From IMG/VR virus record IMGVR_UViG_2563366820_000007: a DNA stretch of 12,940 nucleotides; one strand, given 5' to 3'. Under the pieces are notes generated by a model. That model was not told the DNA's origin. It saw only the letters and a program-made list of their open reading frames with translations, and ran no database searches. Position 1 is the stretch's first letter; every line of letters begins with the position of its first letter. The DNA is from a virus. Lineage: Duplodnaviria > Heunggongvirae > Uroviricota > Caudoviricetes. Position numbers and translations under genes: made by a program. Shown here piece after piece: positions 1 to 12,106 of the stretch.

Positions 1-192
1 TTAATAATCCCTCTTTTCCCATGTTTTTCCATCGGGGTCTTTACGCTTGTCACTACCTGGTAACTGCTGGTGGCGTTCCTGTTGCAGCACAACGGAAACA
101 GGCGCTGAACACCTGTTAATTTTGCTTGCTGGTTGTTTGATTCCGGCAATGCTGCGGATCATTTCCAGCATATCGGCTTCGGTGATGGTCAT
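1..192 (-). CDS. small hypothetical protein (about 63 aa), second gene of AT-rich distal cassette
   Basis: ORF on minus strand with stop at 1-3. Preferred start is the ATG at 190-192 (MTITEADMLEMIRS...), preceded by AGGAAA 5 nt upstream; alternative starts at 213 (ATG) and 219 (TTG). Lies 22 bp downstream of the membrane-protein gene on the same strand. No family recognised. Confidence 0.4.
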   Translation of the reverse strand: MTITEADMLEMIRSIAGIKQPASKINRCSAPVSVVLQQERHQQLPGSDKRKDPDGKTWEKRDY

Positions 193-241
193 AGGTTTCC
201 TATCAGCACTCATATCCAATCAATAAGTTCAATACAATGGA

Positions 242-823
242 TTATCCCGTTTTAGTGACTAACCATTGCAGAATAACGATAATTAAATATGTTAATGTGC
301 CAGTTCCAAGAAGTATTAATAATTGATAGCAACGTAGGACAATATTACTAATCGATTTTTGCATCACGATATTCACTGGCTCAGCCACACACTCTTTAGA
401 TCTTATCGATAGAATACTTGGAACTTCTGTATTTATTGATAATATTTCACATTGAATAGACTCACCAGGTGCAAGGCTTTCAAACTTGATAATATAGCGA
501 CCATCCTGTTCAATATTTTCTTCAAAATGGTGGACAGGCCAAAAATTAATATGCATTGGCTTATAGTTAAAAACCAATGATATATTAGTAGCACTTTCTC
601 GCCCTTCATTAACAAGAATAATAGATCGTGTATACACCAACTGTGAATTAGATATTACCTCACCATTGGCATTCCGTAAGGGTTCATTGAGAAGAAAAGT
701 AAATCCATGCTGATAACCATAGGATAACTTTGCCTTGCTTTTAAATCTGTTATTCAGTATCCATGTTAAAATCGCTATAAAAAAAGAAAATAGTTCTTTC
801 CCATAAAGACTAAAAAAACTCAT
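242..823 (-). CDS. hypothetical membrane protein, 193 aa, two predicted TM helices flanking a soluble domain of about 135 aa
   Basis: ORF track 242..826; the ATG at 821-823 has AAGGA about 8 nt upstream. Hydrophobic stretches LFSFFIAILTWIL near the N-terminus and LLILLGTGTLTYLIIVILQWLV near the C-terminus. GC content is visibly much lower than in neighbouring genes (roughly mid-30s percent by eye). No family recognised. Confidence 0.6.
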   Translation of the reverse strand: MSFFSLYGKELFSFFIAILTWILNNRFKSKAKLSYGYQHGFTFLLNEPLRNANGEVISNSQLVYTRSIILVNEGRESATNISLVFNYKPMHINFWPVHHFEENIEQDGRYIIKFESLAPGESIQCEILSINTEVPSILSIRSKECVAEPVNIVMQKSISNIVLRCYQLLILLGTGTLTYLIIVILQWLVTKTG

Positions 824-921
824 CACACATTTCCTTCAGTAATCTGATTCTGCTGTCAAAGTTACCAGCACTATAGTCATTCATCCACATTGCGACAAGA
901 AGGTTACAGCACGTTCAATCA

Positions 922-1219
922 CACCTTAGGAAATCTTAGGGGGCTGGTTGACACTTTCCGGCTTAAGGCCTTAATAAATCTTAATATCGCAGGTTGACAC
1001 ACTTGACACTTTTTCACGAAAAACCTTAACAAAACTTAACCATCCCTGGCATTTCTAAGCATGGCAACTTGACACTTTTCGCGATTTTTTCGGTTTTTTG
1101 ACGTGGTAAGTCTGGCGCAAAGCCAGTAACGACAGGGGTTACAGCGAGGTTGACACTTTTTCGCGTTCAGAGTGTAAAGTGTCAACCCGGCGGACGGCCT
1201 GACTTGACACTTTTTCGCG
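922..1219. repeat. array of degenerate direct repeats with core TTGACAC(T)TTTT(T)CGCG
   Basis: TTGACAC at 948, 994, 1003, 1069, 1150 and 1204, an inverted copy GTGTCAA at 1179, and a degenerate TTGACGT at 1097. The 16-mer TTGACACTTTTTCGCG is exact at 1150-1165 and 1204-1219. Interleaved second motif CCTTAnn-AAAT-CTTAnn at about 925, 968 and 1023. GGTTACAGC also recurs at 902 and 1137. Confidence 0.7.
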
Positions 1220-1232
1220 AATTTTACGGTCA

Positions 1233-1757
1233 TTAATGGGATGATTTTTCCCACTCAGCCAGGGCGTTTAGTCCTGCCTCACTCCATGTGTCCTGTTCAT
1301 CGGGACAATCGCTGGCAACATAGCATAGTTCACAACGCAGCATACGAATTGCCAGCCTGGCATTACCTCGCAAATTGTATTGTTCAAAGTAATGCTGCCC
1401 GTCGCAATCCTCAAGGCAGATAGCACCATCATCAAGAAAGTGCACTTCCCAGCCTAATTCCCCGGCTGCATCCAGCACACGCTGCTGTATGCCCTCGTCC
1501 GTTGCTGGCGCAGGGATTTTACCGTCTCTGGCCTTAACTGCTTTCCAGAACTCGCCCCACGTCATTTCCAGCGTTCTCTCTGGCCACATTTCAGAAACTG
1601 TGTCTTTTCCCTGTGCTGGTGGGCTGTTCCGCTGCTCTGTCGCTTCCACATCGATTTTTTTACCGGACATGACCACTTCGCCTTTCTCGATCCAGTCGTA
1701 AACTGTCTGGCGGCTTACGCCTTTGTGTTTGGCATATTCTGCCTTACTCATCAGCAT
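1233..1757 (-). CDS. Nu1/TerS-like winged-HTH DNA-binding protein, 174 aa (possible small terminase or packaging-related protein)
   Basis: N-terminus SKAEYAKHKGVSRQTVYDWIEKG follows the same pattern as lambda Nu1 KKQLADIFGASIRTIQNWQEQG. The C-terminal half is cysteine-rich (C..C, CDG, C..C). GGGTGAG sits upstream of the start, which lies 6 nt after the stop of the upstream gene. Functional call is inference. Confidence 0.5.
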   Translation of the reverse strand: MLMSKAEYAKHKGVSRQTVYDWIEKGEVVMSGKKIDVEATEQRNSPPAQGKDTVSEMWPERTLEMTWGEFWKAVKARDGKIPAPATDEGIQQRVLDAAGELGWEVHFLDDGAICLEDCDGQHYFEQYNLRGNARLAIRMLRCELCYVASDCPDEQDTWSEAGLNALAEWEKSSH

Positions 1758-1763
1758 TATGAC

Positions 1764-2435
1764 TCACCCTTCTTTTTCCAGTTGAGCCAGCCGCCCGGAT
1801 ATTTCTTCCAGTTTTTCCAGGGCTGGCTTGCAGGCCGCATCAATAACGTCCCGAACCATTCCGGCAAGCTGCTCATCTGCTGTCGGCGTTGTTACCTCCA
1901 CACCCGATGGTTTCCCGCCCTTATCCCAAACACCAAGCGGCACGAGTGCAACGTGATCGATAAGAAATGGCGTACCCTCAATAAAAAAATTGTCCTCGCC
2001 CATTACATCAGGAACTTCAGCCCCACCGGACGCACCACAAAACACAACCGACGGGCTGGTGGATACCTCCCCCCGTGCTTTCTGGATGTAATCGATGATT
2101 TCCTGCCCGTAAATCCGGCATACGCCCCACACCTCGTCACCGCGAATATACGGCAACATGACGGTGCCAATAATGCGCGACCGTTCGCCCACGTCTTCAA
2201 GGGTTTTGCTTTCGGGATGGTCGATAATGACGGGTACTCCGGCGCAACGTTCCAGGAACTGCGGATTGAGATAAGTTTGCGGTGAACGCCAGACAAATTC
2301 TTTTTCTTCGGCGCGGTAGGCCATTCCGGTTCCTGTGATACGCAGGTTAACCAGCCACATGTTGGAAAACTGATAAGGCGACGGTAGCTGTCCGTCCCGA
2401 ATCTGCTTCGCCGCCTCAATTTCTGTTAAAAGCAT
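1764..2435 (-). CDS. hypothetical protein, 223 aa
   Basis: Long ORF on the same strand as its neighbours, ends 6 nt before the TerS-like start. Acidic coiled-coil-like C-terminus (ALEKLEEISGRLAQLEKEG). Family not recognised; a morphogenesis or packaging role is only a positional guess. Confidence 0.55.
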   Translation of the reverse strand: MLLTEIEAAKQIRDGQLPSPYQFSNMWLVNLRITGTGMAYRAEEKEFVWRSPQTYLNPQFLERCAGVPVIIDHPESKTLEDVGERSRIIGTVMLPYIRGDEVWGVCRIYGQEIIDYIQKARGEVSTSPSVVFCGASGGAEVPDVMGEDNFFIEGTPFLIDHVALVPLGVWDKGGKPSGVEVTTPTADEQLAGMVRDVIDAACKPALEKLEEISGRLAQLEKEG

Positions 2436-2499
2436 AATGTTATCCGGTTATAAGCAATAAGCCCCGCCAAATCCGGCAGGGCTGAACTCAGCACGTTTT

Positions 2500-3078
2500 T
2501 CATGCCCCCGCGAGGCTTGCAACGTTAATTTTGACCAGGCGACGGGGAGGGATTTTGAAGGCGTTCAGCCAGACGTTCGGATCGCCCTGATATTCAGTAA
2601 TACGACGACCAGCTTCATCCATTCTTACGGTTTTACCCAAATGGCCCGGCGTGTTTTCCACGGCCCACTGAGCACTTTCCTGAGCAGCCTTGTAAATCTG
2701 ATCTTCCAGCACCGCCAGCGTTGCAGAATCTGAAACGGAACGAATATCCACATCACTGAATTTTTTAGCCAGCTTCTGTGCGCCAATTAATGCACGTTTG
2801 CGGTAATCCATCGACTTTTCACCAGCAAACGGGGCCGGAGCGCGACGGCCCATATTGCTGTATGCGGAATCCGCTTTAGCCTGGGCTTCTGCCAGTGAGG
2901 ATTCATCTTCGACTGACGCGACGATGTTTTGATTAGCGTTATCCTCTTTTATGAAATCCTGTGCGGGGATCGCATTCAGAATTTCGATAATCTCCTGCGG
3001 AGTGCTGCCCTGCGACTCTGACAGAGCGTTAACCACCTCCATCAGTTTTAATCGCAAATCTTCTTTGCTTGCTGGCAT
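2500..3078 (-). CDS. hypothetical protein, 192 aa
   Basis: ORF track 2500..3087; start preferred at MPASKEDL (ATG 3076-3078) with strong GAGAGGTGG upstream. Family not recognised. Confidence 0.55.
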   Translation of the reverse strand: MPASKEDLRLKLMEVVNALSESQGSTPQEIIEILNAIPAQDFIKEDNANQNIVASVEDESSLAEAQAKADSAYSNMGRRAPAPFAGEKSMDYRKRALIGAQKLAKKFSDVDIRSVSDSATLAVLEDQIYKAAQESAQWAVENTPGHLGKTVRMDEAGRRITEYQGDPNVWLNAFKIPPRRLVKINVASLAGA

Positions 3079-3117
3079 TTTTACCACCTCTCTTTTTTCA
3101 CCAAAAAATCACGACCA

Positions 3118-3297
3118 TCAGGCCGGACGTTCTACGGGATAAAGCGCCCGCTGCATTAAACGCCGGGCGACCTCATGAATGCTCGGAGCAATCCCCAGCG
3201 GAGAATTGCGGCGTTCCTCGTCCTGGATGCGCTGTAATGCTTCAATCTGATCACGAGCGAGTAAAACGGGTTTCACGCTGGCTTTTCTCATAGTCAT
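3118..3297 (-). CDS. small hypothetical protein (about 59 aa), basic, possible DNA-binding
   Basis: ORF track 3118..3315 begins on TTG; in-frame ATGs at 3297 and 3291 (MTMRKASVKPVLLARDQIEALQRIQDEERR...). Weak ribosome-binding site. Sits downstream of two terminators, so expression is uncertain. Confidence 0.3.
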   Translation of the reverse strand: MTMRKASVKPVLLARDQIEALQRIQDEERRNSPLGIAPSIHEVARRLMQRALYPVERPA

Positions 3298-3422
3298 ATC
3301 TTCTGAACAAAACAATGGTTATGATTGCATAAACTGAAATGACGATCTACATCATTGCAATCCATGAAACGATAACGCATGATGATCGCGTTCTTCCCAT
3401 TGACTTCAATCACCTGAAAAAC

Positions 3423-3455
3423 AAAGCCCGCAACACTTCTGGCTGCGGGCTTTTT
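3423..3455. terminator. bidirectional intrinsic terminator
   Basis: AAAGCCCGCA (3423-3432) pairs with TGCGGGCTTT (3444-3453) around an 11-nt loop. T-runs flank the stem on both strands. Confidence 0.6.
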
Positions 3456-3461
3456 ACTGGC

Positions 3462-3487
3462 ACAAAAAAGCCGGGAAAAATCCCGGC
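3462..3487 (-). terminator. intrinsic terminator downstream of the PerC-like gene
   Basis: On the minus strand GCCGGGA-UUUU-UCCCGGC followed by UUUUUUG; the hairpin is 3470-3487 and the U-tract 3462-3469. Lies 6 nt after the stop of the 3493..3780 CDS. Confidence 0.6.
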
Positions 3488-3492
3488 CTCCG

Positions 3493-3780
3493 TCACTGAC
3501 TGCAATTTTTCGATCTAGGGTATTTCCTGAATGCCTCACCATTGGGCTGATGTAATCCCATCCCGGCATGTGCCCGGCTGATGGTGTCGCGCATCTCCCC
3601 GAAATTATCCTGCCTTACTGGCGGGCGTGCTGCCTTGTGGATACATTCCGCTCGACGTTTTGCCGCCTGTTCCCGTGCCTTGTCACCGTTCGCCAGCATA
3701 ATGACCTCAGCCCACCGCGCCGCCGCTCTCCGGTACAGACCACGCGCTTCCAGTGCTTCGGCTTTACTGTCGTGAATCAT
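3493..3780 (-). CDS. PerC-family-like transcriptional activator, 95 aa
   Basis: N-terminal AEALEARGLYRRAAARWAEVI and later MGLHQPNGEAFR resemble PerC-type activators as I remember them. Its ATG overlaps the stop of the upstream ProQ/FinO-like gene (ATGA), indicating translational coupling. Confidence 0.5.
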   Translation of the reverse strand: MIHDSKAEALEARGLYRRAAARWAEVIMLANGDKAREQAAKRRAECIHKAARPPVRQDNFGEMRDTISRAHAGMGLHQPNGEAFRKYPRSKNCSQ

Positions 3781-4307
3781 GCGCCTGTTTTCTCCTTTGC
3801 TGCCCGGCGCTGACGTTTGCGCTTCTCATTCAGCGCCACCAGCCGCGTTTCTGCGTCCTGTTGTTCCTGTGGTGTCACCTCGCCGCACGGCTGGCCTTTC
3901 AGGTCGTAGCGTACCCCACCAGCCATTAAGGCGCGGTAATAGCGCGGACACTGTGCATAAGATGCCAGCGTCGCACGCAATGCCCCTGGACCGAATGCCA
4001 GCCCCCTGACGGCGAGATCCTGCAGCAGGTCGTCGAATATCCCCACCTTAAGCGGCTTCGGTGCTTCCCGGCTGAATAATTCTGGCCACAACTCAGTGAG
4101 GCGGTTAACGCGTCTGCGGTTTTTGCGCTGGCGTTTGGTCATATGCCGCCACGGTGTCGCCCCTGTGGGCTTCTGTTGCGCGTTCTGGTTACCGGGCATC
4201 ACTTTATATGCCGATGTGGTTTTATCCTGTTGCTGCGCCGCCTGCATCGTTTTCTGCGGCGTGCCGTAAATGCCTTTCGGTTTTCTGTTAATGGTCAGCT
4301 TTGTCAT
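3777..4307 (-). CDS. ProQ/FinO-family RNA-binding protein, about 176 aa
   Basis: Central segment ELFSREAPKPLKVGIFDDLLQDLA...YRALMAGGVRYDLKGQPCGEVTPQE aligns by eye with E. coli ProQ N-domain ([22 protein letters not shown]...[28 protein letters not shown]). Start at ATG 4305-4307 (GGGG upstream) or ATG 4317-4319. Confidence 0.7.
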   Translation of the reverse strand: MTKLTINRKPKGIYGTPQKTMQAAQQQDKTTSAYKVMPGNQNAQQKPTGATPWRHMTKRQRKNRRRVNRLTELWPELFSREAPKPLKVGIFDDLLQDLAVRGLAFGPGALRATLASYAQCPRYYRALMAGGVRYDLKGQPCGEVTPQEQQDAETRLVALNEKRKRQRRAAKEKTGA

Positions 4308-4321
4308 GCTTTGCCCCATCG

Positions 4322-4575
4322 TTACAACTGTCTACCGTATTAATACATCGATAATTAATGATTTTTACTAAATGGTAGACAGTGTAGATAGTTAAAATAA
4401 AAATTTTAAAAATGAACCCATAACTATCTGTTTTTATATACCCCCCCGTGGTTTAGAAATATAAAATAAACTGTCCACCTCTCTACCACATTAAAAATAC
4501 CTATATAATTCAAAACATTAATTAGTAGATGGTTGGTAGAGGGTTAAGTGTATCTGTCTACCAACCGTCTACCTT
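4322..4575. promoter_or_regulatory. AT-rich control region with GTAGAC-containing inverted repeats
   Basis: GGTAGACAGT at 4374-4383 and its reverse complement at 4326-4335, which lies in the 5' leader of the ProQ-like gene. Large inverted repeat GTAGATGGTTGGTAGAG (4524-4540) / CTGTCTACCAACCGTCTACC (4552-4571). Confidence 0.45.
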
Positions 4576-4661
4576 TACGTTTCAGCTTATAAATTTCGTA
4601 TTATGTTCTCCAACGGCGCTGATATAACATTCTGTTTTCATTTTTAACATCCATGATTTTT

Positions 4662-5055
4662 TAATTCCTCACCTGCTGCACAGTGAGAATTTATGAAGTT
4701 AATAACAATATGATTTTAAATATATTTTTAAGCACTCACTTTTTAATCCTTATATATACGCAAAAGTGAGGTAAATAGTTAAGTTTTAGTTAATATCTTG
4801 CATGGTGTGTTTTTTAACCTACCTGTTATTTTTATTACCTCATTTCTATTAACTCACCATTCCTCACTTTTGTTCCTCACTTTTTGTTATTCTTGTTCTG
4901 CTCCTCAGTCGTTTTCTTTATTGTTGTAATATGTTGTTTTGCAATGTGTTTTTAACTCCTCACTTTTTGATCTATATACAGGTGAGAAAGTGAGGAAAAC
5001 AGGGATGATTTTTAAATATTCCCTTCCCCCTCACTTTTACGCCTCACTTTTTACA
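4662..5055. repeat. iteron array, putative origin of replication
   Basis: At least 7 direct copies of CCTCACTTTT(T) at about 4735, 4862, 4875, 4968, 5029 and 5042, with degenerate copies at 4668 and 4838. Inverted copies AAAGTGAGG at 4762 and 4987 and GTGAG at 4683. AT-rich spacers. The last iteron overlaps the rep stop codon (5051-5053). Confidence 0.7.
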
Positions 5056-6463
5056 GTGGGCGCACATCATCACCGTCAATAGCGATTACGCCGTCACCTT
5101 CCAGCTTGTACAGCCAGCGCCGGAAGTTTTTCATCTCATACCCCAGCTTTTTCATGTCATCGCGCAACAACGGAATAGTGCATTTATCTCCGCGTTGCGT
5201 GCGTGAACGAATACAACCCCATAGTGCGGCGTGATTCTCCGTCTTGTTCCCGGCTTCCTCGATGCGCTCCAGTTCAACCGGCGAACGGGGCTTATCCTCC
5301 AGCACCAGCGACGTGATTAACTCCCCGCCTTCATCCTTGAAAAGCTCAACCTCGCGCAAATCGCAAGCCATTTCTTTCAGTTCCTCCGCATCCTTCATCT
5401 TGGTACATGCGATAACCAGGGCTTCACTGCCTGCACCTTCACGGCGTATCCGGTACTCTGCATCCAGTGCTGCACGAAACGCACTGGAACCGCGCGCACC
5501 CTTTGTTTCATCCTTGCCGGAATGATGAATTACCAGCACTGTAGCGCCTGTACGCCGTTTCAGTTCGTCACATCCATGGACAAATGCCCCCATATCCCGC
5601 GCATCATTTTCATCGCTGCCACCAAAGCAACGCGCCAGAGTATCCAGAATAATCATGCGTACAGGTTTACCCGTTTCCTGCTCAACCTGTCGGGCAGCAA
5701 TAACCATTTCATCAACATCACTCGGTGCGGCCGGAAAAATTGGACGATTTACCAGGTATAGATTTTTCACCTGCTCACTGTTCACCAGTTCCCATGCCTT
5801 GATACGACGAGGAACACCGATCCCGCCCTCACCAACGACATACATCACCGCACCATGTACAACCCTGCGACCTCCCCACGGGATACCGGTAGCAACATGA
5901 CACGCCCACGAACACGCAAGGAACGACTTATAAGAACCGCTCGCACCGTATGTGCTACATAGCGAATTAGCCGGAATCACGCCCTTAACTACATAGCTAA
6001 GCTGTGAATCATATCCTTCCGATCCAATGCTCATTGGTAGCGTGGTTTTTCGCTGGCTGTATTGCTCGTCAGTAAGCATTTCTTCGCGCTCTGCCTGTTC
6101 GCGGATCCGTTGCAGGTAATCGCGCCAGTTCTCCGGCTCCTGGTCGGTGATGCCTTTGTATAATTTCGCCTCCTGTACGCCAGCCAGCGCCAGTTTTTCA
6201 GCGATAGCGTTGATCTGGATTGGCTCTATCTCCCCCGCGATATAAACACGCGCAAAGCGGCGTTCATCGTCGACAATGCGGATATTCGCCAGGTCTGCCA
6301 GTTGCTTTGGCCCCAGATAAACAGGAGGCACGTTATCGCCATGTTTTCGTCCTTCGCTTTCAATCCAGTGTTGAGCATGGGAGTAAGCGTCCGCCCCGGC
6401 AAAAATGATTACCTCTGTGAATTTATCCTTCGGCTGATATTTCAAATTCGGTGCGTTTTTCAC
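5051..6463 (-). CDS. RepA-like replicative helicase (RecA-fold P-loop ATPase) with an N-terminal domain of about 150 aa
   Basis: GTG start at 6461-6463 with GGAGGT 6 nt upstream, overlapping the stop of the upstream gene (GTGA). C-terminal half carries a P-loop-like GASGSYKS, a Walker-B-like MIILDTL and a VLVIHHSGKD motif, typical of RSF1010 RepA / DnaB-like helicases. An iteron origin follows immediately. Confidence 0.8.
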   Translation of the reverse strand: MKNAPNLKYQPKDKFTEVIIFAGADAYSHAQHWIESEGRKHGDNVPPVYLGPKQLADLANIRIVDDERRFARVYIAGEIEPIQINAIAEKLALAGVQEAKLYKGITDQEPENWRDYLQRIREQAEREEMLTDEQYSQRKTTLPMSIGSEGYDSQLSYVVKGVIPANSLCSTYGASGSYKSFLACSWACHVATGIPWGGRRVVHGAVMYVVGEGGIGVPRRIKAWELVNSEQVKNLYLVNRPIFPAAPSDVDEMVIAARQVEQETGKPVRMIILDTLARCFGGSDENDARDMGAFVHGCDELKRRTGATVLVIHHSGKDETKGARGSSAFRAALDAEYRIRREGAGSEALVIACTKMKDAEELKEMACDLREVELFKDEGGELITSLVLEDKPRSPVELERIEEAGNKTENHAALWGCIRSRTQRGDKCTIPLLRDDMKKLGYEMKNFRRWLYKLEGDGVIAIDGDDVRPL

Positions 6464-6774
6464 TTCTTACCTCCCCGCTCACGAATAATTTCACGTACTG
6501 TCCTGATGCGTTCCGCGCCCGTGACGCTCATGATTTTGTCGATGTCGCTTAATTCTGCTGGTGGCGCTTTACTTACAAGGATGAATTCCCTTTCAAAGCG
6601 CATATGTGACGACACGCAGGGATGCGCATACCCTTCGCGGATATAGGTCACACGATAAGCACTCACCGTTTTTACCGTTATCTGACTGCCGTATTTATCC
6701 CGGAAAATATCGCCGGGGCGAATTTCAGGCCGAGAGAGACCGCTGGCAGTAAAGCCAGAATTTTTCTTTTTCAT
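6460..6774 (-). CDS. hypothetical protein, 104 aa, translationally coupled to rep
   Basis: ATG at 6772-6774 with AGGAAAA upstream; stop overlaps the rep GTG start. Family not recognised. Confidence 0.55.
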   Translation of the reverse strand: MKKKNSGFTASGLSRPEIRPGDIFRDKYGSQITVKTVSAYRVTYIREGYAHPCVSSHMRFEREFILVSKAPPAELSDIDKIMSVTGAERIRTVREIIRERGGKK

Positions 6775-6778
6775 GGTT

Positions 6779-6979
6779 TTATTTTCCTGTCAGCAGTTCC
6801 GGTTTTATTCCTGCACGAATACAGAGTTCAGAAAAGCCTTCTACCGTACTTACAATTTCATTATTTCGCAGTCGGCATTGTGATTTCACGTTCCCTTTAT
6901 CCAGGTAAACCAGTACGCGTCCGGTGAAATCATCTGGCACATTCAGGGTAATTGTCATTGTTGCTGGCTGATTACCCAT
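6779..6979 (-). CDS. small hypothetical protein, 66 aa, single copy of the FTG module
   Basis: ATG at 6977-6979 with GGGGGTG upstream. Contains DDFTGRVLVYLDKGNV...SELCIRAGIKPEL, paralogous to modules in the upstream 121-aa protein. Start overlaps the upstream stop (ATGGGTAA). Confidence 0.5.
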   Translation of the reverse strand: MGNQPATMTITLNVPDDFTGRVLVYLDKGNVKSQCRLRNNEIVSTVEGFSELCIRAGIKPELLTGK

Positions 6980-7337
6980 GATGCACCCCCTGAATGACCT
7001 GATAGCCGCAACAGGTCAGCAATTCGATAAATTCCGGTAATGTGCCGAAACAGCAATCATCACGCAGCTGTTCGCGGGATACCTCGACGCCGTTTTCGTA
7101 GTGACTCACCATACGTCCGGTAAAATGCAGATCATCATCGTGATGGCTCGTTGACGGCTTAATCAGTCGCGCACGTTCTGCCAGTTCCAGCAATGCTTCA
7201 ACACTTCCGGCAATTGCACCATCCGGCAGGTGGTAATTACGCACTATGCGCCCATTCTCCACATTGACCAGTAGCTGCCCGGTAAATTTCTCGTCAAACT
7301 GAATGCTGTTAAGGTCAGAAATTGACAGGTTATGCAT
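6972..7337 (-). CDS. hypothetical protein, 121 aa, two tandem FTG modules
   Basis: ATG at 7335-7337 with AGGGGGTAAG upstream. Two internal repeats: FTGQLLVNVENGRIV...SVEALLELAERARLIKP and FTGRMVSHYENGVEV...LPEFIELLTCCGYQV. Overlaps the upstream stop (ATGCATAA). Confidence 0.55.
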   Translation of the reverse strand: MHNLSISDLNSIQFDEKFTGQLLVNVENGRIVRNYHLPDGAIAGSVEALLELAERARLIKPSTSHHDDDLHFTGRMVSHYENGVEVSREQLRDDCCFGTLPEFIELLTCCGYQVIQGVHHG

Positions 7338-7695
7338 GGCTTACCCCCTGACGAATACGGGCGGCGAATACCATCACACAGCCATCAGGAGATTGCTGGC
7401 GTGCTTCCTGTTCGCTGGTGGCCTCGATGTGAATTACACGCGGTTGTGCCGTACTCAGGGCGATAAAACGCCAGATAAAATTGTTCTCGCATTTCTGAAT
7501 AAACAGCGTGTTTTCTTCGCGCCCTTTCCATGTTGCCGAGATATAGCCCATATCATTGAGCATCTCGCAGGCATCCACCAGCGTATCAGCGGCTACGTGT
7601 ACAGTGTTTTTACCGTCAGCCATGCAATCACGGTGCACCGCCAGGAAGGTGTATATAAATTTAGGGTGAGTTTGGGTATGCTGTGTTCCAGCCAT
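7330..7695 (-). CDS. hypothetical protein, 121 aa, first gene of the replication-side operon
   Basis: The track ORF 7330..8466 is trimmed to the ATG at 7693-7695 (MAGTQHTQ...), which has GAGGT 7 nt upstream. Internal duplication KFIYTFLAVHRD / NFIWRFIALSTAQ. Family not recognised. Confidence 0.55.
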   Translation of the reverse strand: MAGTQHTQTHPKFIYTFLAVHRDCMADGKNTVHVAADTLVDACEMLNDMGYISATWKGREENTLFIQKCENNFIWRFIALSTAQPRVIHIEATSEQEARQQSPDGCVMVFAARIRQGVSHA

Positions 7696-7784
7696 AATCG
7701 TTACCTCGTTTAACGGTTTGGTTAGACGCCCCGCTACTGCCGCAAACAGTTCGGGGCGTTGTCGTTTACATCCTCTTACTGAGG

Positions 7785-7882
7785 TGTGATTTAAATTAAA
7801 TTCAACTGAATCACAGGTCAAGTATTTTTTGTGATTCTTTTTTGTGTATACTGAATCACATCTTTTGTTTAGGAGAATGCAC
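7785..7882 (+). promoter_or_regulatory. divergent promoter/operator region
   Basis: Alternating half-sites TGTGATT (7785, 7830) and AATCACA (7810, 7854) at a spacing of about 22 bp. Extended -10 TGTGTATACT at 7842-7851. AGGAGAA ribosome-binding site at 7871-7877 before the ATG at 7883. Confidence 0.5.
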
Positions 7883-8188
7883 ATGGCAAAAAACACTATC
7901 AACGACAAATCAAAACAGATTTCAATTCGTATCCCACATGATGCTTTTGATGGCATGGAATCCGTAAAACTGGACGGCGAAAGCAACGCCGGATTCATAG
8001 TAACCGCCATGCGTGGTGAGATCGCCCGCCGCCAGGCAGAAGGAAGAGGAGAAAACCCCCTGGTTTCTTCGCTTGATGCACTGGCACAGGTGGAAAAAAT
8101 CGGAGTCAAAGCTGCCGAGGAGATCGGGCAGCTCGTCACCGTCGCGCGTGAAGAACTCCAGCGCCGCAAGGCCAAAGAACAGGAGTAG
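7883..8188 (+). CDS. small putative transcriptional regulator, 101 aa
   Basis: The only convincing plus-strand gene; ATG at 7883 with AGGAGA upstream (the track ORF starts earlier on GTG at 7844). Segment KQISIRIPHDAFDGM could be a ribbon-helix-helix-like beta strand followed by helices (weak). Divergent from the rep operon with operator-like repeats in between. Confidence 0.5.
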   Translation: MAKNTINDKSKQISIRIPHDAFDGMESVKLDGESNAGFIVTAMRGEIARRQAEGRGENPLVSSLDALAQVEKIGVKAAEEIGQLVTVAREELQRRKAKEQE

Positions 8189-8458
8189 TTGATCAGCACC
8201 GGGCGACCAGAAAAAATCGTATCAGTCGCGCCACCAGCAAAATTTTTTGCTTTCCGGACGACGTGGCCAACGACATTTTGCAGCAAAATATTCTGCATTT
8301 CTGGCGTGCTGTAGTAACGGTGATCAGCGCCTTCACTCTGTGCGACCACAACGCTATAATCTGCCTCGTAGACAGTAAGCAATATGGTGCTACAGGTAAT
8401 TCGTTCACAAAGGCGCTCCGGCAACGGGGCGCTTTCTCTTTTTGTAACGGTCAGAGCG

Positions 8459-9259
8459 TTACACATGGCTGTTTTCCTCCATGCGACGGGCTAACCAACG
8501 CTGCGAAAGGCGAATTAATTCAGCTTTCCGCTGGTGGTAGTCCTGGCCTAACTCAATCAGCGTGATATTGCTCTGCTCAAGGTAAGAAAGGTGCTCAAGC
8601 TGCAACGTGCTCATGTGGTCGCGTGGTTCGCCTGTAATGCCGTTCGCCAGTGCCCACTGTTTTGCAGTCATGCCGCCCAGCACGATACGCGCCAGCATAT
8701 TGGCTTCCGTGGTGTAATGGTGCTGTAGAGTGTTTTTACCCAGTTCAGCCCGGTACGCCTCCAGCGCGGCACACATTGGCTTAAAGTAGCTGGCAACTGT
8801 GATACGGGCTTTCAGTTCCCGGCGTAACGCTGCGGAACGTACAGGCGCAACCTTGTGTAGCTCTTCCTCGCATTTGATGAAGTACTGACGAACGGCGCGG
8901 CCCTGTTCGGTGCGTTCGACCATCGCCAGTTCTTTCGCCATGTTGATAGTGCTCAGGTAGTCGTGCTCTACACGTTGGCGAGATTTTGCGCTCACCGGAT
9001 TGGGGGAGGTCAAATTTTCTACGAATTCAAAATCCACGCCCTTTTTAAATCCGTACTCATCAATGCGTCCTTTAATCCAGGTTGTGAAATCACGCTTCAC
9101 ACCCAGCGCCTTATGCAACGCTCTGGCGCTAACAATATTGGTTTCACGCCCGCCAATAACGCCGGAAATAACCGGGATAATTTCGCCGAAATTTTGTTGG
9201 CTCTGGTTTTCAGGCCGAACGAATCCCTGCCCCTGTACGGGCGTTTTTCGCAGTTTCAT
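8459..9259 (-). CDS. phage antirepressor-like protein (AntA/KilA-type), 266 aa
   Basis: N-terminal region NIVSARALHKALGVKRDFTTWIKGRIDEYGFKKGVDFEF resembles antirepressor N-domains; C-terminal half is helical. Domain assignment from memory only. Confidence 0.55.
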   Translation of the reverse strand: MKLRKTPVQGQGFVRPENQSQQNFGEIIPVISGVIGGRETNIVSARALHKALGVKRDFTTWIKGRIDEYGFKKGVDFEFVENLTSPNPVSAKSRQRVEHDYLSTINMAKELAMVERTEQGRAVRQYFIKCEEELHKVAPVRSAALRRELKARITVASYFKPMCAALEAYRAELGKNTLQHHYTTEANMLARIVLGGMTAKQWALANGITGEPRDHMSTLQLEHLSYLEQSNITLIELGQDYHQRKAELIRLSQRWLARRMEENSHV

Positions 9260-9337
9260 AAAAACTCCTGCTATCGAATTAAGTTACTTTTTATTTGCTG
9301 GTGGATAGCTGGGACTTCTGGCCCCGTAGCCATTTAA

Positions 9338-9535
9338 TCAGGTAGCTGTTCCGCGTGATTCCGCAATACGCTGATTAATCCACTCGTCAATTTCACTCTC
9401 AACGAAAGCAATCGCTCGCGAGCCAATTTTAACTGATGCAGGAAATTTACCTTGCCCCATAAGGCGATAAATCCATGCCTTGCTATATCCAGTTCTACGC
9501 TGAACTTCCGTTAAACGAATAAGCGTATTTGACAT
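9338..9535 (-). CDS. alpA: AlpA-family transcriptional regulator / excisionase-like protein, 65 aa
   Basis: LTEVQRRTGYSKAWIYRLMGQGKFPASVKIGSRAIAFVESEIDEWI matches the AlpA (Phage_AlpA) pattern. GAGGT sits 4-5 nt upstream of the ATG. Confidence 0.85.
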   Translation of the reverse strand: MSNTLIRLTEVQRRTGYSKAWIYRLMGQGKFPASVKIGSRAIAFVESEIDEWINQRIAESRGTAT

Positions 9536-9602
9536 ATATTTACCTCATAACGTCTACTCAATTTGACGAGGTAATCATGGCACAGAAATAACGAATATTT
9601 TC

Positions 9603-9753
9603 ATACCCTCATGCCTAATGGTAATCGGGAATATTTTTACCCTAAGGGTAATAGTAAAATTGATGGGAAAGCATACAAAAATACCCTAAGGGTGAGGTCT
9701 GATTACCCTTAGGGTGAGACGCGAACAAAACATGAGATACCACTAGGGTAAGG
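9603..9753. promoter_or_regulatory. cluster of palindromic operator-like sites upstream of alpA
   Basis: TTACCCT-A-AGGGTAA at 9637-9651 (perfect 7-bp arms), TACCCTAAGGGTG at 9682-9694, TTACCCTTAGGGTGA at 9703-9717, and degenerate TACCACTAGGGTAA at 9738-9751 and GCCTAATGGTAA at 9612-9623. Confidence 0.65.
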
Positions 9754-9755
9754 CT

Positions 9756-10526
9756 TCATCGTTTGATAGGACAGGCGACAAGCTCAATAGATGCGGCCTG
9801 TCGGGAGGTAAAACCTCGTTTTTCAAGCTCAGTAGTAATCGCGCCCTGGTTTCCCCTGGTTGCGCGATCATTCTCTGGGTCGTAATTGGCCCACTCTCTG
9901 TTTCTAATATCGATAGCCAGATACAATGGGTCATCATCACGATACGCCCTTAGCAAAATCGGGCGCTCCTTTTCTAACTGATTTACCCGCTCCCTTAACG
10001 ATTCATTTTCTTTTTCCAGCATTGCAATTCGGGATAAAAAATCATCATCTGTACGCAACTCTTTATGTTCAATATTGCTTCCTTGCGCCTCGTTATTTTC
10101 AGAAGAGTCAGCACATTCCAGATTCATTAACCCGTCAAGGATTTCTGGGAAAATTTCGAAAATTTCATTTCTTCTGAATCCCATTGCCTCAAATTCGGCA
10201 TCTTCCCAATAACCAGATACCAGAAAACCACTCTCATCCCTCTCACAAGGTAAACAACCACGCTCCCTAACCGTATCCAGTTTTGCATAAAGAAAGTTAA
10301 AATCAGGTCTCCACTCAAACGGATCCGAAGAATAAAGTTCCACCTCATTTAATGAATTTACTGTGTACAGGGTAATACCTGGATTTACTGTATTTATTCT
10401 CTTGAGTATCCAGGTAATGACTTCTGAAATATTAGCATCAACAACTTTAAATACATCATCAAGAAAATCACGTAAATAAATAAACTCTTTTTTATATTCA
10501 TTTAATTCGGCATGAATATCAACCAT
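9756..10526 (-). CDS. hypothetical protein, 256 aa, orphan cargo between int and alpA
   Basis: The track ORF 9756..10607 is trimmed to the ATG at 10524-10526 (MVDIHAELNEYKKEF...). Central coiled-coil-like segment LSRIAMLEKENESLRERVNQLEKERP. The 5' two-thirds of the gene is AT-rich. No family recognised. Confidence 0.55.
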   Translation of the reverse strand: MVDIHAELNEYKKEFIYLRDFLDDVFKVVDANISEVITWILKRINTVNPGITLYTVNSLNEVELYSSDPFEWRPDFNFLYAKLDTVRERGCLPCERDESGFLVSGYWEDAEFEAMGFRRNEIFEIFPEILDGLMNLECADSSENNEAQGSNIEHKELRTDDDFLSRIAMLEKENESLRERVNQLEKERPILLRAYRDDDPLYLAIDIRNREWANYDPENDRATRGNQGAITTELEKRGFTSRQAASIELVACPIKR

Positions 10527-10527
10527 A

Positions 10528-10582
10528 CGCACACCTCTGCGCCCTCTACCGTAGTGGCTGTGCCAGTCCGCAGAGGTGTGCG
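10528..10582 (-). promoter_or_regulatory. perfect 14-bp inverted repeat (hairpin) covering the ribosome-binding site of the 256-aa gene
   Basis: CGCACACCTCTGCG (10528-10541) and CGCAGAGGTGTGCG (10569-10582) separated by 27 nt. In the minus-strand mRNA the 3' arm contains GAGGUG directly upstream of the AUG at 10526. No U-tract follows, so it is not a typical intrinsic terminator. Confidence 0.6.
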
Positions 10583-10653
10583 GATTTTCGGGAGCGACCC
10601 TAGACACAGCCTTTTCTTAATCGCTCAAAGTCTACTACTGTATACTCAACCAG

Positions 10654-11868
10654 TCACCCGCATTTTCCGAACTCACCATGCACCACATTTCCGCCATGCT
10701 CGAGCGAATCCATATAGTCGGCGTACCACTGGAGCATCTCGCGCCGCCCGTCCAGATATTGCGCATGATTGTACGTGCCACGAATTGAGTTCTTATCAAC
10801 GTGTGCAAGCTGCGTTTCTATCCACGCGGTGTTATAGCCCTGCTCATGCAAAATGGTGCTCATGGTGTGCCGGAATCCATGACCAGTAACGCGCCCGGCA
10901 TAGCCGATACGACGAATGAGCACATTCATCGCCATTTCACTCATTGGCTTACTGTGGTGAATACGACCGGGGAAAATAAACTGATACTGGCCTGTCATGT
11001 TTTTTAACTGCTCCAGTATTTTTATCGCCTGTTCTGGTAATGGCACACAATGCGGACGGCGCATCTTCATTCGTTCTTTAGGCACTTCCCACAAACGATT
11101 ATCAAAATCGATCTCCTGCCATTCTGCCTGCCGTAATTCCCCGGGTCTGACACCTGTCAGAATTAATAGCCGCATTGCCAGTTTGACGATCTGGCTTCCG
11201 GTGTACGTATTAAAAACGCGGAAAAATTCCGGCAGTTCGTCGGCCTTCAAATAGGCGTAATGCTCTTTTTTATGTGGAGCAAATGCGCTCACCAGGTCAG
11301 GGGCTGGATTATATTCGGCGCGTCCGGTGATGATTGCGTACCGGAACACCTCGCCGCATCGCTGGCGAACCTTACGCAATTTTTCAGTCGCACCACGGTC
11401 ATTAAGACGGGAAAGAACCGCCAGCAATTCCATCGGCTTAATTTCTGCGATCGGCCTACCGCCAATGTACGGAAAAACATCTTTTTCAAACGTCTCGATC
11501 ATTTCCTCGGCGTATGACGATGACCACCTGTCGATCCGCTTTTCGTACCATTCGCGAGCAATACCCTCAAAAGTATTGCCAAATTTGCTCGCCTGTTCTC
11601 GCTTTTGGGCTTTTCTGGCCTCACTTGGATTTATACCACCAGCAAGAAGCCTTTTAGCCTCATCCCTTGCCGCCCTGGCATCAGACAGAGACACATCAGG
11701 GTATACCCCCAACGACAACATTTTGGGCTTTCCTGCAAACCTGTAGCGCAGTCGCCACCCTTTCGAACCGTTCGGCTCAATGAGCAACGAAAGCCCGTTA
11801 CCGTCATTGAGTGTATAAGCCTTTTCTTTCGGCTTCGCGCGCCTGATGGCAAGGTCTGAAAGCAGCAT
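10654..11868 (-). CDS. int: P4-family tyrosine integrase, about 405 aa
   Basis: N-terminus MLLSDLAIRRAKPKEKAYTLNDGNGLSLLIEPNGSKGWRLRYRFAGKPK is a typical P4-type integrase arm-binding domain. C-terminus carries HGFRHT and RGTYNHAQY catalytic motifs. Adjacent to a tRNA gene. Start at ATG 11866-11868; an upstream in-frame ATG at 11907 is also possible. Confidence 0.9.
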   Translation of the reverse strand: MLLSDLAIRRAKPKEKAYTLNDGNGLSLLIEPNGSKGWRLRYRFAGKPKMLSLGVYPDVSLSDARAARDEAKRLLAGGINPSEARKAQKREQASKFGNTFEGIAREWYEKRIDRWSSSYAEEMIETFEKDVFPYIGGRPIAEIKPMELLAVLSRLNDRGATEKLRKVRQRCGEVFRYAIITGRAEYNPAPDLVSAFAPHKKEHYAYLKADELPEFFRVFNTYTGSQIVKLAMRLLILTGVRPGELRQAEWQEIDFDNRLWEVPKERMKMRRPHCVPLPEQAIKILEQLKNMTGQYQFIFPGRIHHSKPMSEMAMNVLIRRIGYAGRVTGHGFRHTMSTILHEQGYNTAWIETQLAHVDKNSIRGTYNHAQYLDGRREMLQWYADYMDSLEHGGNVVHGEFGKCG

Positions 11869-11962
11869 GTGTATAGCTCCAAAAAATAAATTTTGTCCTA
11901 TACGCATTACTATACACTTCTGTGTGTAGATTCTGGTAGTTGTGAGTAGACGTTAATAAGCT

Positions 11963-12019
11963 ATGAAAATGGCTGGAAGGCTTGATATTCGTGGGTTTGA
12001 TGGACTTTAGTAGACGTTG
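11963..12019. repeat. direct repeats TGAGTAGACGTT / AGTAGACGTT near attL (candidate arm-type or recombination-directionality-factor binding sites)
   Basis: TGAGTAGACGTT at 11963-11974 and TAGTAGACGTTG at 12008-12019, between the int start and the tRNA 3' end. An exact inverted copy of the 12-mer lies at 9549-9560 in the alpA leader. Confidence 0.5.
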
Positions 12020-12032
12020 AGAAATGTTTGTT

Positions 12033-12106
12033 TGGAGCGGGCGAAGGGAATCGAACCCTCGTATAGAGCTTGGGAAGCTCTCGTTCTACCATTGAACTAC
12101 GCCCGC
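12033..12106 (-). tRNA. glyU: tRNA-Gly (anticodon CCC)
   Basis: The reverse complement reads GCGGGCGTAGTTCAATGGTAGAACGAGAGCTTCCCAAGCTCTATACGAGGGTTCGATTCCCTTCGCCCGCTCCA (74 nt), with cloverleaf arms and anticodon loop TTCCCAA. Matches E. coli glyU as I recall it. Confidence 0.9.

Follow-up and report, generated by a model that had tools for sequence, protein, structure and literature searches.

We examined a 12,940-nucleotide stretch of viral DNA (IMG/VR record IMGVR_UViG_2563366820_000007; referred to as the window, with position 1 at its first letter) that carries an element integrated at the tRNA gene glyU of Escherichia coli. The element is very probably a satellite of the Gram-negative phage-inducible chromosomal island (PICI) lineage, and its late module contains two genes that, as read from their alignments, are the separated and order-swapped halves of a single prohead protease-scaffold gene of the type carried by Rac-SA53-like phages, together with an orphan winged-helix protein and a composite repeat array. 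Identification of a PICI at glyU is routine; no description of such a late module was found in the literature searched on DUF2213, glyU satellites and PICI scaffold or protease genes. Taken as a whole, the explanation presented here, a PICI whose late genes would act on the head assembly of a helper phage, is in our judgement likely, with most of the weight resting on the identity of the element.

The assignment is carried by the early half of the element. All proteins of two reference PICIs, EcCICFT073 and EcCIIHE3034, were compared with the window proteins. The Icd-like protein was 75-77% identical to its counterparts in the reference PICIs, the DUF4222 protein 47-52%, the YlcI protein 37-51% (51% to the EcCICFT073 YlcI-like gene) and the AlpA protein 31-36% (36% to EcCICFT073 AlpA). 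The PerC protein was 52% identical to EcCICFT073 PerC, and the first 130-145 residues of the replicase were 48-50% identical to the Pri proteins of EcCICFT073 and EcCIIHE3034; the integrase was 26-29% identical to the reference PICI integrases. Because AlpA, YlcI, the Icd-like protein, DUF4222, the replicase N-domain and PerC are homologous to those of two validated PICIs (36-77% identity across the six genes), we assign the element with high confidence to the Gram-negative PICI lineage.

The organization of the element agrees with this assignment. Like EcCICFT073 and EcCIIHE3034 (Fillol-Salom et al. 2018, 2019), it is ~11-13 kb in size and has a unidirectional order consisting of int, alpA, an opposite-strand YlcI gene, an Icd-like gene, small genes, DUF4222, a replicase, an iteron origin, PerC, a late module and a terminal small gene. 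It differs from them in its attachment site (glyU as opposed to ycfD-phoQ or cspD-clpS), in having an additional AntA gene, in having ProQ in place of SSB and in the catalytic domain of its replicase, which is a RepA helicase instead of a primase. Its late module is unrelated to theirs and has no capsid-like, decoration, Rpp or TerS gene and no lambda cosN. glyU is not among the attachment sites in the 2018 PICI catalogue. The integrase gene (10654-11907) lies at the attL end, and the other genes run unidirectionally away from it; every convincing gene to the left of the tRNA lies on the minus strand, with YlcI as the sole exception (the gene order was checked with Pfam, NCBIfam and PHROGs), and gene coordinates below refer to the minus strand unless stated otherwise. 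An AlpA-type regulator lies near int, accompanied by an Rfam int-alpA motif, and the element has its own replicase followed by a predicted iteron and AT-rich origin, an arrangement (iterons plus an AT-rich stretch immediately 3' of rep) that is the one described for PICI origins (PMC6092414). No tail, lysis, portal or connector genes were detected in the window, and the size falls within the 8-15 kb range (relatives are ~12-15 kb). The core by which SatelliteFinder defines PICIs comprises an integrase, a regulator, a replicase, a capsid-morphogenesis gene and terS; the first three are clearly present here, and the last two are represented only by non-canonical candidates. The components that this model forbids (tail, holin, portal and connectors) are absent.

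Gram-negative PICIs have been described with four zones, termed integration, Bro, replication and late (Tommasini, Mageeney and Williams 2023, PMC10111431), and the window element has the same zones in the same order. The integration zone contains int, the int-alpA RNA and alpA; the Bro zone contains AntA, YlcI and the Icd-like gene; the replication zone contains DUF4222, the RepA-type replicase and the iteron/AT-rich origin; and the late zone contains ProQ, PerC, terminators, a small protein, the scaffold-domain gene, the protease gene, the winged-helix gene and the repeat array, after which comes a terminal cargo hotspot. A sequence-only reading of the window had proposed a PICI-type satellite at glyU with essentially this gene order, the former being supported by the four-zone order and the six homologous early genes, the latter confirmed by Pfam, NCBIfam and PHROGs. 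As in the four-zone model, the late zone carries genes captured from a prophage type, but this copy lies in a tRNA gene and not within a helper, and its captured gene is split, reordered and spacer-less instead of being an intact cluster. The main text of PMC10111431 mentions none of NUDIX, protease, scaffold, small terminase or tRNA-Gly. EcCIMP1, a PICI of E. coli MP1 with helper Kapi1 (PMC11773190), likewise shares AlpA, an AntA antirepressor, an Icd-like gene, DUF4222, PerC and tRNA-gene integration with the window element, and its thrW/proA site is also used by close relatives of the window element. EcCIMP1 differs in its size of 20 kb, its TOPRIM/DUF927 primase, its late zone of P22-type ejection-protein genes and its lack of a DUF2213 pair.

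The two genes at the centre of the late module encode a 195-residue protein (2500-3087; likely ATG at 3078) and a 223-residue protein (1764-2435). Both match PHROG 6216, a family of 545 positions, the 223-residue protein over positions 115-328 and the 195-residue protein over positions 409-544 (E 4.5e-47). In tblastn searches the two proteins matched an identical set of 14 phage records, and a single open reading frame (ORF) accounted for both matches in those phage genomes that were examined. The 223-residue protein, a prohead protease domain of assemblin fold (DUF2213), aligns to residues 3-226 of the 430-residue Rac-SA53 protein ALP46870 with 54% identity, and residues 61-189 of the 195-residue protein, a scaffold C-domain homologue, align to residues 295-423 of the same protein with 64% identity. 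The Glu/Ala/Lys-rich spacer of the Rac-SA53 protein (approximately residues 230-295) has no counterpart in the satellite pair. In both Escherichia phage Rac-SA53 and Klebsiella phage Chronis, the fused ORF follows the portal and head-morphogenesis genes, and in Rac-SA53 it precedes the major head protein; in the satellite the order of the parts is swapped, with the scaffold-end gene first and the protease gene second. By these alignments, 1764-2435 and 2500-3087 are separated, order-swapped halves of one Rac-SA53-like prohead protease-scaffold gene. The protease half shows the characteristics of an assemblin-fold prohead protease of the T4 gp21/herpesvirus type: it has the fold and a His/Ser/His set in order, and these residues are conserved. 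The sequence-only reading had guessed that these two then hypothetical proteins sit where capsid-size or packaging-interference genes would be expected, and that guess is strengthened by their apparent origin. Its statement that the element contains no capsid, portal or tail genes holds in that none was detected, but head-morphogenesis homologues, the protease and the scaffold domain, are present.

In its logic, the pair resembles SaPI1 CpmB, P4 Sid and SaPIbov5 Ccm, which are satellite proteins related to, or mimicking, a part of helper head assembly; CpmB reportedly shares the capsid-binding C-terminus of the helper scaffold. Compared with these proteins, the window pair is truly homologous (64% identity) to a helper-type scaffold C-domain and includes a separate protease with its catalytic residues intact, while its effect on capsid size is putative. 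None of the genes that follow PerC in the gene order was found to be similar to the reference PICI genes for capsid-like, decoration, Rpp or TerS proteins. Public annotations name these genes "TolA", "NUDIX hydrolase" (both used by RefSeq) or "glycosyl transferase" (window 1764-3087; locus L008, 4704-5288; locus L006, 6995-8287), labels transferred from the phage fusion proteins that trace back either to the Glu/Ala/Lys-rich spacer or to the NUDIX domain which some of those proteins carry at the N-terminus; neither the spacer nor NUDIX occurs in the satellite proteins (no Pfam NUDIX match). A relative in STEC719, located at smrA-abgR (locus L015, 31013-35632), has a CFT073-type integrase and a longer late zone in which a 205-residue unknown protein and a 679-residue lytic-transglycosylase (ejection-protein-like) gene lie between the protease and winged-helix genes. 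Capture of rac44 was ruled out as the source of the extra 618-nucleotide gene of this variant, as the PHROG families differ.

Downstream of the protease gene lies a gene (1233-1757) for a 174-residue orphan winged-helix (helix-turn-helix) protein, in the position held by Rpp or TerS in canonical PICIs. It had been labelled TerS-like in the sequence-only reading, and an N-terminal winged-helix match does exist (phrog_57, E 1.6e-7 over 42 residues); it is the only basis for that weak label, for the protein resembles neither Rpp nor TerS in sequence and is not accompanied by a lambda cosN. A predicted structural model (predicted local distance difference test score 88.7) contains a winged helix at residues 1-44, a disordered linker and an alpha/beta domain, and its N-domain belongs to the same predicted fold class as the domains with which lambda TerS and Rpp bind DNA. 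The family occurs only in Enterobacterales and has no functionally named member; its first 42 residues, the N-terminal helix-turn-helix, are nearly invariant, and the remainder falls to as low as 36% identity. Searches of PDB sequences returned only noise, and a tblastn search of 50,697 phage records returned no match. Neither these searches nor that of the C-domain described below established a remote link to TerS or Rpp. Rpp proteins have 139-154 residues, a winged helix plus an alpha3-alpha6 dimerisation region, to which helper TerS binds, and an upstream lambda-like cosQ-cosN, and the window protein does not fit this family. Its best match to the reference proteins, 36% over 25 residues (E 0.054, not significant), is to the 144-residue EcCICFT073 protein encoded just downstream of cosN, which by position and length is taken to be RppA. 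Its C-terminal domain also differs from that of Rpp, and its candidate DNA site is a repeat array downstream of the gene instead of a lambda-like cosQ-cosN upstream; lambda cosN lies just upstream of terS in IHE3034 and of the 144-residue gene in CFT073.

The array (915-1221) is a composite of repeats containing AAAGTGTCAA on the element strand, five in direct and one in inverted orientation, plus one TTGACAC copy at 987. Six exact copies of TTGACACTTT occur at 948-1213, compared with 0.88 expected, and none of 200 shuffles reached six. Each unit ends in AAAGTGT(C/A)AA(C/G)C; in several, paired YTAAG boxes and a T-rich GCG(A)n stretch come before it. An array of this kind is shared by relatives L001, L002, L003, L008, L010 and L015, and an AAGTGT(C/A)AA motif lies downstream of homologues of the winged-helix gene in Klebsiella (58% identity) and Enterobacter (38%), such that the motif is kept in relatives with 36-58% protein identity. 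By megablast, gene and array occur together in most of the 221 genomes matching the late-module query, often without the protease pair (as in O104:H4). The array stays with the winged-helix protein where the integrases are 100%, 66% or 26% identical or unrelated, and the elements in question include Klebsiella helper-embedded satellites whose integrase has only a catalytic domain on record. The repeats are therefore disfavoured as integrase arm sites or as sites of a cognate excisionase, which would not be expected to follow the winged-helix gene across unrelated integrases; sigma-70 promoters, suggested by the internal TTGACA, were rejected after a promoter scan found none there.

Because the winged-helix gene and array occupy the position of cos plus rpp/terS in canonical elements, we favour a packaging-recognition role, and tentatively propose, with rather less than even confidence, that the two form a packaging-specificity unit. 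The strongest rival holds that they serve regulation, as a transcription factor of late-operon or anti-helper type and its operator array, or form a recombination-directionality or partition-like module, a reading that we regard as a serious minority possibility. The protein has weak matches to NCBIfam "excise" and RacR and has no TerS-typical oligomerisation core, in addition to its dissimilarity from Rpp and TerS, and in the helper-embedded satellites of Klebsiella no more than ~150 bp separate the array from the next annotated gene, so that it may be near the end of the element. However, protein and array stay paired in elements with four unrelated integrase types, one of which has no arm-binding domain on record, and a directionality factor cognate to an integrase should co-vary with it. 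Moreover, the E. coli relatives have 0.7 to >2 kb of cargo between the array and attR, and the excisionase/activator role is already held by AlpA in this lineage (PMC6092414). In Klebsiella loci L011 and L012, the homologues with 58% identity are the last gene of satellites lying within the late regions of E217/Pam3-like prophages, one of which adjoins a truncated major capsid gene; these satellites look like the helper-embedded PICIs that PMC10111431 describes.

The origin of the split gene points to a candidate helper. The protease/scaffold pair is present at ≥95% identity in 34 complete E. coli genomes, and a Rac-SA53-like head module is present in 90 of 5426 E. coli genomes, 60 of which were listed for a co-occurrence test. 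At least 16 of the 34 module carriers contain both elements, compared with 0.56 expected, a strong enrichment and not a probability, as the hypergeometric value of ~1e-20 treats as independent strains that are not and is inflated by related porcine enterotoxigenic E. coli (ETEC). The genomes with both module and prophage are from pigs, goats, cattle, an otter, a baboon and water. That Rac-SA53-like phages are the helpers, and that the satellite interferes with their capsid assembly, is a proposal we consider evenly balanced. In several genomes the satellite and the Rac-like prophage are only ~35 kb apart. This closeness was ruled out as helper-embedding: in STEC719 the satellite lies at smrA-abgR and the prophage at the neighbouring ttcA. 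Also ruled out was the idea that Rac-SA53 and the Klebsiella helper prophages are one phage type; the Rac-SA53 late genes compared, rac46-rac51, match none of the E217/Pam3 Pfam families recorded for the Klebsiella prophage late genes. Rac-SA53-like prophages can carry toxin genes beside terS, namely LT-IIa in Rac-SA53 (locus L006, 1210-2350) and enterotoxin and subtilase-family AB5 toxin genes in the STEC719 prophage (locus L015, 807-4969).

The only tRNA in the window is tRNA-Gly(CCC), at 12033-12106 on the minus strand (ARAGORN; Rfam tRNA, 71.6 bits). To its right lies a LysM and M23 lipoprotein gene, named actS (ygeR) by RefSeq in relatives; tRNA and neighbour together place the locus at E. 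coli glyU, the integration target. The attL core, TGGAGCGGGCGAAGGGAA, is the 18-nucleotide 3' end of the tRNA (12033-12050). As no second copy was found in the window with up to three mismatches allowed, attR lies outside the window, as had been anticipated, and attR and perhaps some cargo of this copy lie to the left of it, where the repeat pattern expected before position 1 is TGGAGCGG(G)CGAAGGGAA. A megablast search with the whole window against 5426 complete E. coli genomes yielded relatives at 93-95% identity covering at most 83% of the window, and three of these, ETEC1747, WGI31CT and TUM9812 (loci L001, L002 and L003), were inspected for the far end. In all three, the element lies between glyU and a GH15 (glucoamylase-like) gene that terminates the ETT2 type III secretion island, and a degenerate tRNA-derived repeat, TGGAGCGGCGAAGGGAAC, is present at its far end, 234 bp from GH15. 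This attR remnant lies 0.5-2.3 kb past the point matching the left edge of the window, giving a tRNA-to-attR distance of ~12-15 kb, and ETT2 comes next. Structural and lysis genes of phages are absent from the interval up to GH15 in these three relatives; the possibility raised in the sequence-only reading, that structural genes just beyond the window would make the element a full prophage, finds no support there. ETT2 is a known neighbour of glyU (PMC2808357), and, since the element lies between glyU and GH15, the satellite is inserted between the tRNA and ETT2 and has not replaced it. The sequence-only reading was right to place ETT2 at this locus, but island and element stand in tandem, and ETT2 does not occupy the site in place of the element.

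These ends bear on whether the element is a decayed, immobile remnant, either a cryptic prophage or a dead satellite, with no present function. attR is not visible in the window, relatives have a degenerate attR with a 1-nucleotide deletion in its core, and some relatives contain insertion sequences and pseudogenes. Nevertheless, the window genes described here are all intact ORFs, the catalytic residues of the protease are conserved, and many genomes carry this architecture at 93-99% identity; it is found at three or more attachment sites and shows the module exchange typical of active elements. We therefore consider decay improbable. Still less probable is an island mobilised by non-phage means such as conjugation, or a plain defence or virulence-regulator island: a ProQ/FinO-domain protein and a RepA-type helicase are both common on plasmids, and relatives carry defence-type cargo at the terminal hotspot, yet Pfam scans of the window detected no relaxase, oriT-associated or coupling-protein family, the late genes are homologous to phage head-assembly genes and co-occur with the matching Rac-SA53-like prophage type, and the early genes are homologous to those of phage-mobilised PICIs. 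Least credible of all are three further identities: P4-like satellite, capsid-forming PICI and complete prophage. Although int, alpA, an Icd-like gene and a replicase are common to P4-like elements, a typical P4-like satellite scores as a three-component PICI through this shared core (De Sousa et al., PMC10085698) and the window element does contain head-morphogenesis homologues, the window has no match in Pfam or PHROGs to the Sid, Psu, Delta, epsilon or alpha primase families of P4, no Rfam match to a C4 or IsrK immunity RNA at E up to 0.1, and no ORF belonging by Pfam or PHROGs to the major capsid, portal, head-tail adaptor/connector and TerL families expected of a capsid-forming PICI, nor any tail, holin or lysis gene, and such genes are missing up to attR in the relatives as well.

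The remaining genes of the PICI fit this picture. The tyrosine integrase has an arm-binding domain (Pfam Arm-DNA-bind_3, Phage_int_M and Phage_integrase; phrog_1, E 7.5e-80) and is 99.8% identical to that of ETEC1747; its real start is probably the second Met, at 11868, giving the 1215-nucleotide gene annotated in relatives. Directly downstream is the int-alpA RNA motif (Rfam RF02996, 10543-10610, minus strand; 48.4 bits, the gathering score being 35.8; E 1.2e-7). This motif overlaps the GTG start assigned by program to the following ORF, a conserved, functionally uncharacterised gene that lies between int and alpA (9756-10607), and the real start of that gene is therefore probably further downstream. 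The ORF has only weak coiled-coil/bZIP matches among the families searched and no PADLOC match. The sequence-only reading had taken it for cargo; however, a 798-nucleotide homologue is annotated at the same position in relatives at both glyU and thrW, and because it is conserved in relatives at other attachment sites, the gene is, judging by this comparison, probably not free cargo. Next come the AlpA-family regulator/excisionase (9338-9535; Pfam Phage_AlpA, E 2.4e-19) and an AntA/Bro-network antirepressor-like protein (8459-9259; Pfam AntA, E 5.5e-23; phrog_5817 anti-repressor, E 3.6e-39), the C-terminal part of which has a weak PADLOC PDC-S22 match. The YlcI/YnfO-family gene (7844-8188, plus strand; NCBIfam NF041551, E 4.1e-18) is followed by the Icd-like gene (7330-7713; NCBIfam phage_ICD_like, E 5.3e-23). 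A 378-residue ORF on the minus strand of the program-made list (7330-8466) was rejected as an artefact, being the Icd-like frame running on antisense through YlcI. Three small early genes (6460-7337; phrog_340 twice) encode proteins of 121 and 66 residues and the DUF4222 protein (6460-6774; Pfam DUF4222, E 1.1e-17).

The replicase (5051-6463) is a RepA-type (AAA_25) helicase (Pfam AAA_25, E 3.8e-44; phrog_2850, E 5e-221). Its 130-145 N-terminal residues resemble those of PICI primases (locus L004, 5742-7496; locus L005, 4274-6022), and its catalytic part is another enzyme; relatives have DUF927, DUF5906 or primase versions at the same position. This comparison suggests that the N-domain is a fixed adaptor attached to replicases that can be exchanged. 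The predicted replication origin (4320-5051; GC content ~0.31) consists of four pairs of CCTCACTTTT iterons (4734-5051) beside an AT-rich stretch (4320-4730), with eight iteron matches in 4320-5051 compared with 0.95 expected by chance in the whole window. Among the fetched loci, iterons cluster beside the replicase only where it is of the RepA-helicase type, and this co-variation supports a cognate rep-ori pair. A ProQ/FinO-domain protein (3777-4319; Pfam ProQ, E 8.4e-24) and a PerC-family regulator (3493-3780; Pfam PerC, E 1.3e-31) follow. Directly past the PerC stop codon, between the early/regulatory genes and the late module, lie two tandem terminator-like hairpins (3423-3489, minus strand), the first (GGCCGGGATTTTTCCCGGC plus a T run) read from the sequence and the second from a terminator scan, with a weak Rfam hairpin match over the same interval. 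The two putative terminators suggest that the late module, from 3315 down to 1233, is a separate transcription unit that would need its own activation or antitermination. At its head is a small gene (3118-3315) that has no family match and for which a 174-nucleotide homologue is annotated in relatives. The protein, of ~60 residues, begins MTMRKASVKPVLLARDQIEALQ, and canonical PICIs have a small gene in the same position (locus L004, 8963-9169); guessing by eye from the sequence pattern, both may be ribbon-helix-helix proteins.

The stretch between the array and attR (positions 1-930 in the window) is, by comparison with relatives, a cargo hotspot. It contains nothing extra in ETEC1747, SieB in WGI31CT (locus L002, 11286-11831) and Abi plus SieB in TUM9812 (locus L003, 4031-5761). 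In the thrW-integrated relative in O104:H4, the same hotspot holds an AAA ATPase and a DUF4435 gene (locus L010, 9703-11659), a pair that we take to be the PARIS architecture. In the window it contains an AT-rich accessory gene (242-826; GC content 0.34-0.39) encoding a 194-residue protein without a match in Pfam, PHROGs, NCBIfam or PADLOC, whose family has only 14 clusters, with all named sources in Enterobacterales. By eye, the protein has hydrophobic segments at both ends, and it is a candidate exclusion protein. PADLOC found no defence family among the two accessory genes and all of the late genes. The small conserved terminal gene (1-219) encodes 72 residues, of which the N-terminus weakly resembles the last EcCICFT073 gene (E 1.5e-4). 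Most relatives align only from positions 64-66 on, and TUM9812 alone matches from position 1; these alignment starts place a mosaic recombination breakpoint, as deduced from the sequence comparison, at ~64 within the terminal gene.

We propose the following course of events. By analogy with EcCICFT073, a helper phage would trigger alpA-dependent excision, and the element would replicate from its own origin. The late genes, expressed as a separate unit behind the two terminators, would then act on helper head assembly by way of a free assemblin-fold protease and a free scaffold C-terminal (capsid-binding) domain; following a logic like that of SaPI1 CpmB, the protease and the spacer-less scaffold domain would compete with the helper's own protein and so disturb or resize its procapsids. 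The winged-helix protein would bind the downstream array and mark satellite DNA for the packaging machinery of the helper, making protein and array the functional counterpart of cos plus Rpp or pac plus TerS. All of these steps, and helper dependence itself, are inferred. The boldest form of the proposal is that the late module is a new hijack kit, in which the one protease/coiled-coil/scaffold gene of a helper was cut into a free protease and a free scaffold domain, with loss of the long spacer, to resize or poison Rac-SA53-like procapsids, and in which the winged-helix protein and its array would supply a packaging recognition system that is unrelated to Rpp/cos and TerS/pac and exchangeable between satellites with different integrases and helpers; we regard this full form as possible but doubtful.

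Several observations weigh against this explanation. The late module resembles no validated PICI interference or packaging gene in sequence, and lambda cosN (a 12-mer, with up to two mismatches) is absent from the window. A search of 1.84 billion representatives with the C-domain of the winged-helix protein recovered only its own small family, with no informative match. Distant homologues of this protein in Klebsiella sit in satellites that are embedded in another prophage type (E217/Pam3-like), indicating that it is not specific to one helper family. The link to Rac-SA53-like phages is affected by the inflation of the co-occurrence statistic and by the 18 of 34 module carriers that fall outside the 60 listed prophage carriers; these phages also have no defined pac or cos site. 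attR and the left end of this copy are outside the window, which bears on its intactness. Finally, induction, replication, packaging and interference are predictions from gene content, for this element and for its close relatives alike.

Virulence regulators (PerC) and anti-phage genes are spread by satellites of this lineage, which also shape the success of phages in E. coli. Validated E. coli PICIs exploit lambda-like cos phages through Rpp, whereas this element, along with at least 34 complete E. coli genomes carrying the same module, appears tuned to Rac-SA53-like prophages at rac/ttcA. Some of these prophages carry LT-II enterotoxin or subtilase-toxin genes, and a satellite interfering with them could influence the spread of toxin phages. 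If true, the proposed mechanism would represent a second, mechanistically distinct form of helper capture for Gram-negative PICIs, and the protease and scaffold domain would provide a simple, testable pair for the study of capsid-size control.

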